64,000 bases of DNA from Abditibacterium sp. (GTDB taxonomy: Bacteria; Armatimonadota; Abditibacteriia; Abditibacteriales; Abditibacteriaceae), in assembly GCA_965199495.1 (NCBI GenBank), contig CBDASK010000003.1:4576001-4640000 (forward strand), in the 5' to 3' direction. This document shows, in pieces, positions 45,001 through 48,000 of this stretch. Numbering within the stretch: position 1 is the stretch's first letter; every line of letters starts with the position of its first letter. Position numbers: made by a program.

Positions 45001-48000
45001 GCTGAGTTATTTTCAGAAAATGTGGGACAGTCTGGTGCCCGCCGGAATGATGAAATTGTTCATCACTTATCACGATAGCCAGCCGTTGTCGGCGGCGATT
45101 TGCTTTTTGCTGCCGCCGCAATGTTGGTATATCTACGGCGCCAGCTCCAACGAAAAGCGCAACCTGATGCCCAATCATCTGATGCAATGGACGATGATTC
45201 AGTGGGCCAAAGAAAATGGCTGCGAGTTGTATGATTTTCGCGGCGTGCCCGACCCCGACAAAGGCGAAATGCCGCCCGGCGAAGAAGGCTTAGTGCGCTT
45301 CAAAACCGGCTTCGGCGCCGAATTGGTGCGCTACATCGGCGAATACGATTTGCCGCTCGACAAAAAAATGTATTGGGCTTGGACAACCGCGCGGCCCAAG
45401 TTAGTTAATGCGTTGAAAAATTTGAAGCGTTAGATCAGTGCAATTTGTAAATTGACGTAATAATGATTATGAGATAAGATAGAGATTCAAAGGAGATAAT
45501 ACATGAAAAATATCGCATTAATTGCCGCGAGTCTGGCATTGTTGAGCACAGGAGCCACGGCACAGGATGCTCAATCTTCTGCAAAAGCCGTTAAGGTCAT
45601 CAACGGCTCAGTCATCACGCTCTACTCATTGCCAGCAAGCGAATGGGCAGAAAAAGGTTTTAACGTATTTGCGAGCGGCGGGGTGACAGTAGACAGCAAG
45701 TCCAGCGAGTATAAGCTCGAGGGTGGAGTTATAATCGAGTTAGGACAAAACCTTAAAATTTATGCCGAAAAAGCCACAGTGAGAGGGGGAGAAAACACCT
45801 TTATCGTTCTCCAAAGCGATGGAAGAATTGAATCGAACGAAGGCGAACACAAAGTGACGCAATTTGCATCGGAAGGAACGCGCATCGAACTGCCATAAAT
45901 TAGCGAACTACAAACAAAGAGAGCGGACGACACTTCTATGTCGTCCGCTCTCTTCAATTAAATTATAGGCGGTGTGAGAGTCGAACTCACCTTCAAACAC
46001 GTTATAAGCGTGCCTCTCACCACCGGTGAGACTACCGCCCGCACAGTGCAATTGCGGGCGGAGCTATTCGATTGCGATAATAATTCGGCTTCACTTGAGG
46101 TTTTAGTTTACTGACACAGCACCAAAGAAGGAACCATGAACAACGAATTATTTGAAGAATTAGTGCAGAGCGTGCGCGAAATGGGCGCTATCAATCGAAG
46201 CGAAATGCAACCCTCGCGTGTGATTGAATTATCTTCGCCTCTCAAGCAATCATTAGATAACCGAAAAGAGGCACAAAAGCGCGAAGGAAAAGCAAGAAAC
46301 CGCCTAATTACATAGCGGTTTCTTCCAAACCTTTTGTTATTCTTGTGCCTTTTCGTGGCTATAAAATCAACTGAATCGGTTGCGGGCCGACGCCCGCTGC
46401 GACGTTCATTTTGCCGCGCGTGTAACCTTCCAAATCGAGCAAAACCGATTCAAAGCCCAGACTGCGCAGATGCGCCGTGGCTGGTTGGTAGAACTCGAAC
46501 ATTTTCGGCAGTTCTTCGGGCGCGATTTCTAATCTCGCTTGCGGTTTATCGTTTTCGGTGAAATGGCGCACGCGCACTTCGCGCAGTCCGCGTTCGCGTA
46601 GCCAAACTTCGGCGCGGCCCACGCGATGCAACGCCTCGCGCGTGACGGGTTGGCCGTAGGGAATGCGCGAACTCAAGCACGGCATCGCGGGTTTGTCCCA
46701 GGTTGGCAAGCCCATTTCGCGCGAAAGTTCGCGGATTTCGGCTTTGCTCAGTCCAGCGTCGCGGAGCGGCGAGCGCACCAGATGTTCGGCGCCCGCCTGC
46801 GAGCCGGGGCGCCATTCGCGCGCGTCGTCGAGGTTGGTGCCATCGCAAATCGCGTCGAAACCTTCGGTTTCCGCGACGCGCTGCAAAACGCTCCACAATT
46901 CGCTTTTGCAAAAGTAACAACGATTGGTCGGGTTGGCGGCGTAGTTTGCGTCCTCAATTTCGTGCGTCTCGACTTCGCGCAAAGGCGCGCCGATTTGCGC
47001 GGCTAATTTCTGCGCCGACTCGAACTCTTCGGGCAACAGCGATGGCGAAACGCCGATAATCGCGACGGCGCGCTCACCCAGTTCTTCGTGAGCCACGCGC
47101 AGCAAAAAGGCTGAATCTACGCCACCGGAATAAGCGATAATAACGCGATCAAATTCGCGCAAATGGGCGCGCAGTGCGGAGTATTTAGGGTTTTCCATCT
47201 TGGTAAATTTGCCGTAGAGACGCCGATTTATCGCGTCTGAAACGTTACACCTGCTGAAAAATTTAACGTTTTAGATGCGATAAATCGGCGTCTCTATGGA
47301 GATTTTGGGGCCAACACATCTAACACGCCCGGCAGCATCGAAAGCTCCGCCGGAGTTGTGCCCCACTCGTCGCCATCCAACTGAATCGGAATCGGCGGGC
47401 TGCTTTCGATGCGCACGCTTTCGGTTTGGAAATAGCGCGCCGTGCCGCGCTCGACGTGCTGACCAAATAACAATTGAGTCACCTGCTGGACGCTGGTCAA
47501 CTTGTTCTCGAACGGAAAAAAACACAAATCGAGTTTGCCGTCGTCCAACTGCGCCTGGCCGGTGAACTTGATCGCCCACGCATACGAAGGCGCGTTGCCC
47601 GCCATCAGCAGCCACGCCATCTCGCTGTGTCGCCGTCCATCGGGAAAAGTCAGTGTCACCTGCGTGCCCTGATGCACAACAGCGTTTTGCAGACTTGTCA
47701 ATACATAGGCGAAATCGCGCAGCACGAACTTCATTTGCAAAGTGGTTTCTTCGATGACTTTGGCGTCGAAACCGATGCCCGCCATCAACACGAAATAGCG
47801 CGGCGAAGGCTGCCCGGCGTCGTGCGCATTTTGCGCAACTGCCAACTTTTTGCTGCGCCGCCGCGCTTGCGCTAAGGGCCGCGCATAGCCGACATCAATG
47901 CGCCGCGAAACTCCGGCGGCAATGCAATCGGCGGCCTCGCGCCAGTTGCGAAGTCCCAGATTATAAGCGAAGACGTTGCCGGTTCCGAGGGGCAAAATTC

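Follow-up and report, generated by a model that had tools for sequence, protein, structure and literature searches.

A leader open reading frame and an acceptor-pairing hairpin may gate the maturation of a tRNA(UAU) with a tRNA-Sec-like D arm in Abditibacterium

INTRODUCTION

The match between tRNA supply and codon demand is usually explained by promoters and growth-rate control. Ribosome-mediated attenuation by leader peptides is known from the trp, his, leu, ilv, and pheST leaders, in which a short open reading frame (ORF) carries regulatory codons linked to the regulated product and the position of the ribosome sets mutually exclusive RNA pairings. The tRNA locus described here appears to share both properties with these attenuators. 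It differs from them in its output, which would be formation of an acceptor stem instead of termination (there is no U tract after the hairpin), and in having a single sensing codon and a product that is the decoder of that very codon. Setting tRNA 5′ maturation by hiding or exposing the 5′-leader region also has a parallel in a synthetic RNase P riboswitch, which is engineered and ligand driven according to the part of its description consulted (PMC7897497); the present system, in contrast, is natural, and the ribosome would drive it. We found no description of leader-gated tRNA maturation in the literature searched.

tRNAs that read the isoleucine codon AUA with U34, the U34 decoders, are at risk of misreading AUG. 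A tRNA-Ile(TAT) gene alongside tilS has already been reported in some bacteria (Taniguchi et al. 2013, PMC3575796), and coexistence of a UAU tRNA with the TilS route is not new in itself. The examples given in the consulted part of that report are Mycoplasma mobile and the tilS-keeping Lactobacillus casei, Cyanothece PCC 7424, and Ferrimonas balearica. The locus studied here is like these in having UAU for direct AUA reading, in the presence of tilS, and in requiring an isoleucyl-tRNA synthetase (IleRS) that accepts a wobble U.

The body of the tRNA finds its closest parallels elsewhere. As in tRNA-Sec and the allo-tRNAs, the D stem is long and its loop short, the anticodon stem is extended, and the U8-A14 contact is missing. 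Unlike them, it has acceptor and T stems arranged 7/5, as opposed to 8/5, 9/4, 8/4, or 9/3, lacks a long variable arm, and carries the discriminator A73.

RESULTS AND DISCUSSION

The window analyzed is a 64,000-nucleotide stretch of a contig from an Abditibacterium sp. genome, here called G000. ARAGORN calls a single tRNA in it, a 75-nt tRNA-Ile(tat) gene at 45966..46040 on the minus strand, with the anticodon UAU at 46004-46006 (minus strand) in the loop CUUAUAA; we refer to its product as tRNA(UAU). The survey's finding that the Rfam tRNA model is blind to this gene is borne out by our scans. In the window, matches to every Rfam family stay below the gathering score (29 bits for RF00005), and the locus is not among the 60 tRNAs that RF00005 finds in the whole genome. 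In E-value mode, the best match within the Rfam clan is to tRNA-Sec, which scores 32.5 bits where 47 are needed to reach the gathering score.

The minus strand folds into a cloverleaf (−31.7 kcal/mol; z = −3.17), with an equally good fold in 1 of 200 shuffles. It has four arms, a 7-bp acceptor stem, a 5-bp T stem, and a 7-nt anticodon loop with U33, and A37 and A38 follow the UAU, as in an AUA decoder. The T loop, UUCGACU, fits UUCRANU, the variable region is 5 to 6 nt, and the discriminator is A73; CCA is not encoded here, and is encoded in only 1 of the 66 tRNA genes of G000.

The cloverleaf is backed by covariation. Among seven sequences, two-sided changes affect 6 of 23 stem pairs and 99.4% of cells are paired; with 25 distinct sequences, compensatory changes reach 16 of 24 pairs, with 99.3% of cells paired, a result matched by none of 500 shuffles. 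The anticodon loop is invariant in these 25 sequences (the search pattern imposed CUUAUAA on the 14 metagenome rows and left the loop of the 11 genome rows free), C4-G69 occurs in all 25, and A73 in 24. Paired stem changes and an ARAGORN call of tRNA-Ile(tat) at seven of seven BLAST-found loci had been reported before, and both were reproduced. The survey had also counted six relatives that keep the gene: BLAST again returns 6 of 26 family relatives at 86 to 97% identity, but a covariance model finds the tRNA, in the unusual form described below, in 10 of the 26. The gene is real and under constraint, as the ARAGORN call, the cloverleaf score, and the compensated pairs attest.

The noncanonical character of the tRNA body, previously noted from A8 and an unusual D arm, extends to its core. 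tRNA(UAU) has G1·U72, A8, G9, a 6-bp D stem, and G26·U44, and does not have the canonical core of U8-A14, R15-Y48, A21, and a 3- to 4-bp D stem. The tRNA-Ile(UAU)s covered in the consulted part of PMC3575796 are, by contrast, canonical cloverleaves that lack the A8, 6-bp D stem, G26·U44, and G1·U72 seen here, and that part mentions neither a leader ORF nor an anti-acceptor hairpin in them.

The extended D arm, UCUCAC-CGGUG-GUGAGA (46015..46031, minus strand), forms 6 bp, and a seventh pair is possible in this copy. Its stem is 100% paired across the 25 distinct sequences: pair 10:25 is UA in 15, CG in 7, GC in 2, and UG in 1; pair 12:23 is UA in 22, CG in 2, and UG in 1; pair 14:21 is AU in 24 and GC in 1; and pair 15:20b is CG in all 25. 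The change from A-U to G-C at 14:21 is found in locus L097 and in a phage copy (G14-C21). A14-U21 and C15-G20b are thus Watson-Crick pairs in this odd form, and all 11 genome copies have A8, a base that the search left free. The family relative G019 carries a copy with a canonical D arm (U8, A14, A21), preceded by the CGAATA box and hairpin that are described below; relative to this copy, positions 8, 14:21, and 15:20b are altered jointly in the odd form. The 6-bp, tRNA-Sec-like D arm is derived from a canonical ancestor. In the folded tRNA, the U8-A14 and 15-48 contacts would be gone, with the 6-bp D stem in their stead, and G26·U44 would extend the anticodon stem.

Membership in the tRNA-Sec family was rejected. 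The RF01852 score of tRNA(UAU) (32.5 bits, against the required 47) lies within the 27 to 43 bits of ordinary G000 tRNAs, the acceptor/T arrangement is 7/5 and not 8/5, the variable region is 5 to 6 nt, and the anticodon is UAU and not UCA; a scan of the whole of G000 with RF01852 gave no tRNA-Sec above the cutoff. Assignment to the allo-tRNAs (8/4 or 9/3, with a long V arm) was likewise rejected, the 7/5 arrangement being shown by covariation in both stems; A8 lies opposite C65, so an eighth acceptor pair is impossible. These observations indicate that a 7/5 bacterial elongator tRNA is able to bear a tRNA-Sec-like core, that this form is kept by a bacterial lineage and a phage, and that it escapes standard tRNA models.

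TilS scores 151 bits in G000 (cutoff, 93.6), and all 28 genomes of the order have it. Three CAU tRNAs were confirmed in G000, one of them tRNA-Ile2(CAU)-like, so that the earlier picture of TilS and three CAU tRNAs beside tRNA(UAU) holds; a crude long-ORF recount (ATA, 3908 to 4147; ATT and ATC, ~32 to 33 thousand each) is also consistent with the codon numbers given before. The sole IleRS of G000 is of type 2, or eukaryote-like (662 bits to 8c8w versus 239 bits to 1ffy), as in Bifidobacterium and Neorickettsia, and the consulted part of Taniguchi et al. (2013, PMC3575796) argues that type 2 IleRS is able to accept UAU. We infer the isoleucine identity and the state of U34, and conclude that tRNA(UAU) is a true accessory tRNA, most likely an isoleucine acceptor that uses U34 to decode AUA directly. 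Chromosomal AUA use is unrelated to the presence of the gene (carriers, 3.04 to 4.16 per 1000; noncarriers, 2.63 to 3.88 per 1000) in a comparison of seven genomes that sampled 400 kb of each with a crude long-ORF caller.

The copies of G007 and G008 carry G3·U70, a pair that is the major determinant of alanine identity. Along with the tRNA-Sec- and allo-tRNA-like D arm and the place of UAU among the predominant anticodons of 8/4 allo-tRNAs in the consulted parts of the literature (Mukai et al. 2017, PMC5389517; review, PMC7609411), this would suit a tRNA of another amino acid identity, or a recoding adaptor like the UAU allo-tRNAs, whose core serves a dedicated synthetase or modification enzyme. 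We consider this improbable given the 7/5 arrangement, short variable region, and A73, with neither 8/4 or 9/3 stems nor the long V arm that gives allo-tRNAs their serine identity. The same family also contains the canonical ortholog in G019 and a tRNA-Ile(GAU)-like UAU tRNA in G024 (78.5% identical to the tRNA-Ile(GAU) of its genome), no dedicated enzyme gene is conserved next to the tRNA, and the leader described below would sense AUA in ordinary translation. By global identity, only the G024 copy clearly resembles tRNA-Ile(GAU). The G019 copy shares 70 to 72% identity with several tRNAs, Ile(GAU) and the Ile2-like CAU tRNA among them, and descent of the family from tRNA-Ile2 was set aside, with G019 equally near several tRNAs and no specific support for that origin.

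The DNA upstream of the tRNA, passed over as intergenic in the survey, holds a conserved leader ORF with a cognate AUA codon and a hairpin in which the acceptor strand would be tied up. In the window, the ORF (46032..46094, minus strand) has 20 codons and a GTG start (MKPNYYRNRIAPPAIALCGR), and its UAG stop consists of tRNA nucleotides U7-A8-G9. It contains a CGA-AUA (Arg-Ile) codon pair at 46065..46070 (minus strand) that is invariant in the leader: of 28 family loci examined, 20 have the CGAATA hexamer, 27 to 37 nt ahead of tRNA +1. Every one of these 20 loci has an ATG (17 loci) or GTG, the latter in G000, in frame and no more than 12 codons upstream of CGA-AUA, while the same test in the two other frames gives 0 of 20 and 0 of 20, and the chance expectation from shuffling is 0.11 to 0.18 per sequence; the sequences compared are kin, and binomial P values on loci overstate the case. 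The 20 loci encode 19 distinct leader peptides, which differ in length by whole codons and have only Arg-Ile in common. As in an attenuator, a short ORF with a start codon thus carries a codon cognate to the regulated product. The reading frame and the invariant CGA-AUA can be read directly from the alignment, and the leader is presumably transcribed and translated.

Several features of the leader vary or stand apart. The ORF ends, depending on the locus, in the hairpin loop or at tRNA nucleotides 7 to 9, 22 to 24, or 36 to 38, and that of L014 runs without a stop codon up to the end of the tRNA. The sequence ahead of the leader start shows no evident Shine-Dalgarno motif, and Rfam returns only subthreshold noise for the leader region. 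Among the sense codons of G000, AUA (2.9 per 1000) ranks 5th and CGA (5.3 per 1000) ranks 11th in rarity. The ORFs of G000 do not avoid the CGA-AUA pair (50 observed versus 20.8 expected), so that avoidance of the pair does not account for the invariant CGA of the leader. The same leader design was not found at 13 ARAGORN-called tRNA(UAU) loci of the phylum outside the order. The eight family loci without a CGAATA box comprise four with a nonoverlapping hairpin, two in tRNA clusters (one of them on a phage contig), one preceded by a plain TATAAT, and one that is a decayed copy in G026.

A hexamer resembling a −10 element, TAAACT (46105..46110, minus strand), is the putative promoter read from the sequence; it sits 10 nt 5′ of the leader start codon and would imply a very short 5′ untranslated region. 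By eye, most of the 20 loci have such a −10-like hexamer (TAAACT, GATACT, AATACT, TATACT, TATAAT, or TAAAAT) ~7 to 12 nt ahead of the start, and a σ70 consensus scan at the locus found no promoter.

Two nucleotides past the AUA of the leader, the 5′ arm of a predicted hairpin begins (the "anti-acceptor" arm; 46053..46063, minus strand). Its 3′ arm spans positions −3 to +9 and includes the 5′ acceptor strand of the tRNA (46032..46043, minus strand). At −18.4 kcal/mol, this leader fold is the most stable among the leaders of the 66 ARAGORN tRNA calls in G000. We folded 21 precursors, those of the 20 CGAATA loci and the decayed G026 copy, and G1 of the tRNA is predicted to pair with a leader C in all 21. 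The leader partners covary with tRNA positions +5, +6, and +7, and the RNAalifold consensus hairpin has nine pairs, three of them with compensatory changes. Across loci, the anti-acceptor arm begins 1 to 6 nt past AUA.

In the 20 CGAATA loci, folds of the leader plus 9 nt hold 4 to 7 of the 7 acceptor nucleotides in the hairpin (in L096, only 2 stay there when the full precursor is folded free), and forcing the cloverleaf costs 1.1 to 14.3 kcal/mol over the minimum free energy (MFE). A complete acceptor stem is predicted in 0 of 20 free precursors, although MFE folds omit tRNA tertiary contacts, modifications, and kinetics, and free precursors may still mature. When the RNA is masked to 7 nt past AUA, the complete stem appears in 3 of 20 predicted folds, and when it is masked to 9, 11, or 13 nt, in 17 of 20. 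By prediction, then, exclusive pairings are chosen by the position of the ribosome, as in attenuators. The regulated element does not have the form of a terminator: the hairpin is followed by UAGUCUC, with no U run, and the sole terminator of the element is 3′ of the tRNA, an intrinsic terminator 9 nt past the gene, with a 19-pair hairpin followed by a T run (45915..45956, minus strand). The hairpin is also unlikely to be a DNA operator, because the sequences of its arms shift along with the acceptor sequence.

A plainer account is that tRNA(UAU) is a constitutive accessory tRNA-Ile(UAU), that the hairpin merely serves to stabilize or mark the precursor's 5′ end, and that the ORF is untranslated or has no regulatory effect. 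In keeping with this account, the metagenomic loci L084, L086, L090, and L092 have a strong 5′ hairpin that ends 4 to 5 nt before the tRNA and no leader ORF, the phage, L093, and L094 copies also lack such a leader, and neither promoter nor Shine-Dalgarno motif is recognizable. It leaves unaccounted for the invariant CGA-AUA and a start codon specific to one of three frames, the whole-codon indels among the leader peptides, the prediction that at 17 of 20 loci a footprint reaching 9 nt past AUA sets the acceptor stem free, and the covariation of leader partners with acceptor positions 5 to 7. We judge this account unlikely, though it carries appreciable weight.

We favor, with slightly better than an even chance, a back-up AUA decoder beside the universal TilS/tRNA-Ile2(k2C) route, with a maturation that is self-sensing and gated by the ribosome. 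The transcript would open with a short translated leader ORF of the form M-X(5-8)-Arg(CGA)-Ile(AUA), in which AUA would be the sensing codon, and the arm right behind it would pair with the 5′ acceptor strand of the tRNA. The covarying hairpin and the fold switch come from computation, and the polarity of the switch would be the following. When AUA is decoded promptly, the ribosome would pass and depart, the leader hairpin would beat the acceptor stem, and the precursor would be no substrate for RNase P. When decoding of AUA is slow, the ribosome would stall on this codon and mask the anti-acceptor arm, the cloverleaf would form, and the tRNA would mature. Because the product decodes the sensing codon, such a loop would sense decoding capacity for one codon. 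That tRNA(UAU) is the first natural tRNA with maturation autoregulated by leader ORF translation via its own codon seems to us an evenly balanced proposition.

If ribosome-gated maturation is correct, it would constitute direct, codon-specific feedback, with a tRNA gene gauging the decoding speed of its own codon, and ribosome-mediated attenuation would gain a new output, namely, RNA folding and RNase P processing. A U34 decoder made only under a shortage of AUA decoding would explain the coexistence of two AUA routes, the reason to keep it beside the accurate lysidine route being its use as an inducible back-up. The element is self-contained, at ~190 nt, which would make it simple to test and reusable wherever the decoding capacity for one chosen codon is to be sensed.

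A pattern built on the anticodon loop and T arm occurs in 15 of 28 genomes of the order (in one of these, G020, no tRNA is called at the match) and in 20 of 373 elsewhere in the phylum sample. The strict odd-form pattern is found in only 10 records among GTDB species genomes, all of them titled Abditibacteri*. Odd-form tRNA(UAU) is a trait of the Abditibacterium-like lineage and not a stray gene. It is absent from 3 of 13 genomes of the genus, one of them a two-contig assembly, and is therefore dispensable.

A FemX-like gene of the FemAB family (44342-45433, plus strand; PF02388, E = 8.9e−55) lies ~0.5 kb from the tRNA, and the survey had kept in view a non-ribosomal role linked to it. That tRNA(UAU) serves as an aminoacyl donor for this adjoining transferase is, in our estimate, very improbable. 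The proximity suits such a role; the two genes are convergent on a common terminator region and not cotranscribed, the phage cluster and the AUA leader favor ribosomal use, and, apart from G000, FemAB comes no farther than 1.5 kb from the tRNA in just 1 of 10 odd-form relatives, the closest one, G006, so that the suggested link is unsupported. On the other side, a PP-loop gene (46359-47198, minus strand) was considered as a U34 modifier and rejected, as it is a LarE equivalog (309 bits; cutoff, 150) and does not lie beside the tRNA in most relatives.

The odd form also occurs outside cellular genomes. A viral contig of 187 kb, 94% complete by CheckV, bears it in a tRNA cluster alongside Leu(UAA), Thr(UGU), and Val(UAC) tRNAs. 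This cluster, the patchy presence in the genus, and several more irregular tRNA genes and clusters in G000 would agree with a phage-derived or conflict tRNA, kept to resist or replace tRNAs attacked in infection. We give this origin little probability: the chromosomal copies are stand-alone and locally syntenic, the canonical G019 ortholog has the same leader, and the leader logic suggests housekeeping control of decoding. Integrase, phage, and transposase families were absent within 1.5 kb in 15 loci, and a mobile-island setting was rejected. Circumstantial support for AUA decoding comes from the phage cluster and from codon use on the viral contig, where ATA makes up 14.6% of isoleucine codons, versus 6.0% in G000.

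A constrained tRNA(UAU) gene that the Rfam tRNA model misses

The only tRNA in the window is an ARAGORN call, tRNA-Ile(tat), at window positions 45966-46040 on the minus strand. No Rfam family reaches its gathering score anywhere in the window, and this tRNA is absent from the 60 that RF00005 lists in a whole-genome scan of G000, the genome holding the window. In E-value mode, its top clan match is tRNA-Sec at 32.5 bits, below the gathering score of 47; because the same model gives 27-43 bits to ordinary tRNAs of G000, this score is nothing special. The strand is predicted to fold as a cloverleaf (-31.7 kcal/mol, z = -3.17), and a terminator with 19 pairs begins 9 nt 3' of the gene. 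CCA is not encoded, as is usual in G000 (CCA in 1 of 66 tRNA calls).

Among 25 distinct sequences, 14 of them metagenome rows retrieved with a pattern that fixed A8, G9, C11, C13, GGT, G22, G24, G26, the anticodon loop, and part of the T arm in advance, 16 of 24 stem pairs carry changes in both partners, and the share of paired cells is 99.3%. Of 500 shuffles, 0 attain this value, and slid controls give 40-56%. The survey's finding of a tRNA gene here is confirmed; its interpretation holds in part. The tRNA is almost certainly real and under constraint.

A D arm and core resembling those of tRNA-Sec

Bacterial tRNA-Ile(UAU) is already known; the odd tRNA adds a structural variant to it that is new. 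Its D stem has 6 pairs, paired in all 25 sequences. At the positions that the metagenome search pattern left free (10, 12, 14, 15, 20b, 21, 23, and 25), pair 10:25 is UA in 15 sequences, CG in 7, GC in 2, and UG in 1; 12:23 is UA in 22, CG in 2, and UG in 1; 14:21 is AU in 24 and GC in 1; and 15:20b is CG in all 25. A phage copy likewise has G14-C21. G26.U44 can form in 25/25 sequences, and G1.U72 is present in 23/25. The copy in a further genome, G019, has U8, A14, A21, and a 4-bp D stem and shares its upstream box and hairpin (described below) with the odd form; from this comparison, the odd core therefore looks derived, via joint changes at 8, 14:21, and 15:20b. Differences at these positions are what sets tRNA-Sec apart (review PMC7609411). 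Identity as tRNA-Sec or as an allo-tRNA was rejected, in both cases on the 7/5 arrangement, short variable region, A73, and anticodon UAU.

Distribution of the odd form

The survey's count of six among 26 family relatives was reproduced by BLAST but is an undercount. A covariance model built from the BLAST-found sequences adds four copies at 88-91 bits (G001, G003, G009, and G010), so the odd form occurs in 10 of 26 relatives (9/12 in the same genus and 1/1 in a second genus); 3 of 13 genus genomes lack the gene, which counts against the overall reading given below. In G019 and G022, the model also detects tRNA(UAU) genes whose D arm is canonical. The copy in G026 (locus L020, G026:C6:3571803-3571877) has decayed, with 64.8 bits, anticodon loop CAUAGCC, C8, and no ARAGORN call, and is either a pseudogene or a repurposed copy. 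It retains the acceptor stem, T arm, and leader hairpin and lacks the CGAATA box.

Across a phylum sample, a pattern of anticodon loop plus T arm matches 15/28 genomes of the order versus 20/373 elsewhere; one of those 15, G020, gets no ARAGORN tRNA call. A strict odd-form pattern, applied to one genome per GTDB species, returned 10 records, each either titled Abditibacterium, Abditibacteriales, Abditibacteriia, or Abditibacteriota or belonging to a MAG. With the D-stem extension unconstrained, a looser pattern returned one viral-contig locus and 17 metagenome loci, of which 14 are distinct. Neighbours of the gene vary among sub-lineages.

A leader ORF and a hairpin precede the tRNA

Flank alignment revealed an invariant CGAATA about 30 nt 5' of the tRNA (window 46065-46070, minus strand, in G000) and a hairpin that joins the leader with the tRNA's 5' acceptor strand. 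The box is present in 20 of 28 family loci (the 11 odd-form copies from genomes, the G019 copy, and 8 loci from metagenomes), and a box-anchored alignment places it as the codons CGA-AUA in a short ORF. An in-frame ATG lies at most 12 codons 5' of the box, with no stop between, in 17/20 loci, and ATG or GTG in 20/20 (GTG in G000); the other two frames have start codons in 0/20 each, and shuffles give 0.11-0.18 per sequence. The compared sequences are kin, so P values are upper-bound impressions. The 20 loci encode 19 distinct leader peptides, which have only Arg-Ile in common and whose length differences are always whole codons. Upstream, an in-frame stop occurs 8-52 codons away in 18/20 loci, and the remaining two reach the sequence end. 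The leader's own stop falls in the hairpin loop or at tRNA nt 7-9, 22-24, or 36-38; one locus (L014) has none. By eye, most loci have a -10-like hexamer about 7-12 nt before the leader start; a consensus scan called no promoter before the G000 leader. Three points count against the overall reading given below: no Shine-Dalgarno motif is evident before the leader start, the G000 leader starts with GTG, and CGA-AUA pairs are not avoided in G000 ORFs (50 observed versus 20.8 expected).

The G000 leader fold (-18.4 kcal/mol) is the most stable among 66 tRNA calls, and its hairpin is among the few that persist in the whole-precursor fold. When leaders were folded with 9 nt of tRNA (21 precursors), 4-7 of the 7 acceptor nt paired with the leader in all 20 CGAATA loci and the G026 copy; in locus L096, only 2 acceptor nt stay leader-paired once the entire free precursor is folded. 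The hairpin partner of G1 is a leader C in 21/21 precursors, whereas its partner in the acceptor stem is U72, and the leader partners of tRNA positions 5, 6, and 7 vary together with the tRNA. The RNAalifold consensus hairpin has 9 pairs, 3 of them compensated. Leader ORF and hairpin are very likely selected features.

Four of the eight box-less loci (L086, L092, L084, and L090; metagenome, unbinned lineages) are odd-D-arm tRNA(UAU) copies that lack a leader ORF and instead follow a strong hairpin, which ends 4-5 nt 5' of the tRNA; two (L093 and the phage copy) belong to tRNA clusters, one stands behind a plain TATAAT, and one is the decayed G026 copy. L086 and L092 encode 3' CCA.

A candidate switch between leader and tRNA

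The 5' arm of the hairpin (window 46053-46063, minus strand, in G000), an anti-acceptor arm, starts 1-6 nt 3' of AUA. According to MFE folds, which take no account of tRNA tertiary structure or kinetics, 0/20 free precursors have a complete acceptor stem, and forcing the cloverleaf costs 1.1-14.3 kcal/mol across the 20 CGAATA loci. As a proxy for a stalled ribosome, every nucleotide out to a chosen distance past AUA was barred from pairing: masking to 7 nt restores the full acceptor stem in 3/20, and masking to 9, 11, or 13 nt in 17/20. The 3' edge of a bacterial ribosome usually lies about 9-10 nt past the A-site codon; the distances therefore agree with a ribosome paused at an A-site AUA.

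In the proposed logic, slow AUA decoding would leave the anti-acceptor arm covered during transcription and folding of the tRNA, and RNase P would then lock in the outcome; a type-A RNase P RNA was found (199.8 bits). With prompt decoding, the ribosome would proceed to the leader stop and depart, after which the local hairpin would capture the tRNA 5' strand. We lean slightly toward this polarity. The favoured reading as a whole, in which a back-up AUA decoder with a Sec-like core senses its own codon and is gated by its leader, appears slightly more probable than not.

In design, the leader resembles leader-peptide attenuators; unlike them, it has no terminator, and it would act on how a tRNA folds and is processed. 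Full-text literature searches, including one on pre-tRNA leaders, found no natural precedent for such a leader switch. The synthetic RNase P riboswitch of PMC7897497 comes nearest.

Amino acid identity and AUA decoding

As the survey had noted, G000 also has TilS and three CAU tRNAs; TilS is encoded in 28/28 genomes of the order. By reading, the CAU tRNA at C3:4675740-4675812 has an acceptor stem like that of tRNA-Ile(GAU), also with G1.U72. According to Taniguchi et al. 2013 (PMC3575796), some bacteria carry tilS and a tRNA-Ile(TAT) gene together, so coexistence of two AUA routes is already known; type-1 bacterial IleRS excludes UAU by a Trp residue, and eukaryote-like IleRS probably takes it. 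G000 encodes a single IleRS, which belongs to the eukaryote-like type 2 (662 bits to 8c8w, 583 to 1ile, and 239 to 1ffy) and also resembles MupA and MupB. The UAU tRNA of another genome, G024, is 78.5% identical to tRNA-Ile(GAU), so UAU decoders arose more than once in the family.

The tRNA(UAU) probably carries isoleucine and decodes AUA. Two further observations count against the overall reading: the copies in G007 and G008 (L010 and L011) combine A73 with G3.U70, the classical alanine identity pair, and AUA usage is unrelated to presence of the gene across 7 genomes. By rarity among G000 sense codons, AUA ranks 5th and CGA 11th.

A phage copy

The viral contig is 187,654 bp long and 94% complete by CheckV. 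Its cluster of U34 tRNAs (L100, G401:C1:41075-41608) groups the odd-D-arm Ile(UAU), which the Rfam tRNA model again misses, with Leu(UAA), Thr(UGU), Val(UAC), and one tRNA without assignment. ATA makes up 14.6% of Ile codons in the viral long ORFs versus 6.0% in G000 (2.4 times). Cluster and high ATA use are the usual pattern of translation-serving phage tRNAs.

Neighbouring genes and other tRNAs

The FemAB neighbour, as the survey noted, is seldom kept: it lies close to the tRNA only in G000 and G006. In G000 it is a FemX-like gene (window 44342-45433, plus strand; PF02388, E = 8.9e-55; NF047883, 142 bits, below the cut-off of 500), followed by a 131-aa ORF of no family (45503-45898, plus strand); both converge on the tRNA terminator. 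The intergenic stretch at 46041-46135 contains the leader and its putative promoter. Divergent from the leader is a 59-aa ORF without a Pfam or NCBIfam family (46136-46315, plus strand), and a minus-strand run (46359-50380) encodes the sacrificial sulfur transferase LarE (309 bits), a lipid kinase resembling YegS, and two carboxypeptidases of M14/AstE-like type.

Outside the window, G000 has short tRNAs with the Leu anticodons UAA, CAA, and UAG (G000:C3:1551844-1551916, 1551930-2003, and 3473050-3473125). They are of class-I length (73-76 nt) without a long variable arm, all score above the Rfam tRNA gathering score, and they adjoin normal long-arm tRNA-Leu genes; bacterial tRNA-Leu has a long arm as a rule. 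Relatives have arrays of such tRNAs, one with Gln, Asn, and four Leu anticodons (L038) and one of 15 tRNAs (L026). ARAGORN also calls a 'tRNA-Stop(tta)' at G000:C3:4284143-4284216, outside the window, which the Rfam tRNA model scores at 42.5 bits. Four tRNA-Trp(cca) genes are present in G000, as is a Glu/Trp/Ala tRNA cluster at C3:4061305-4061537.
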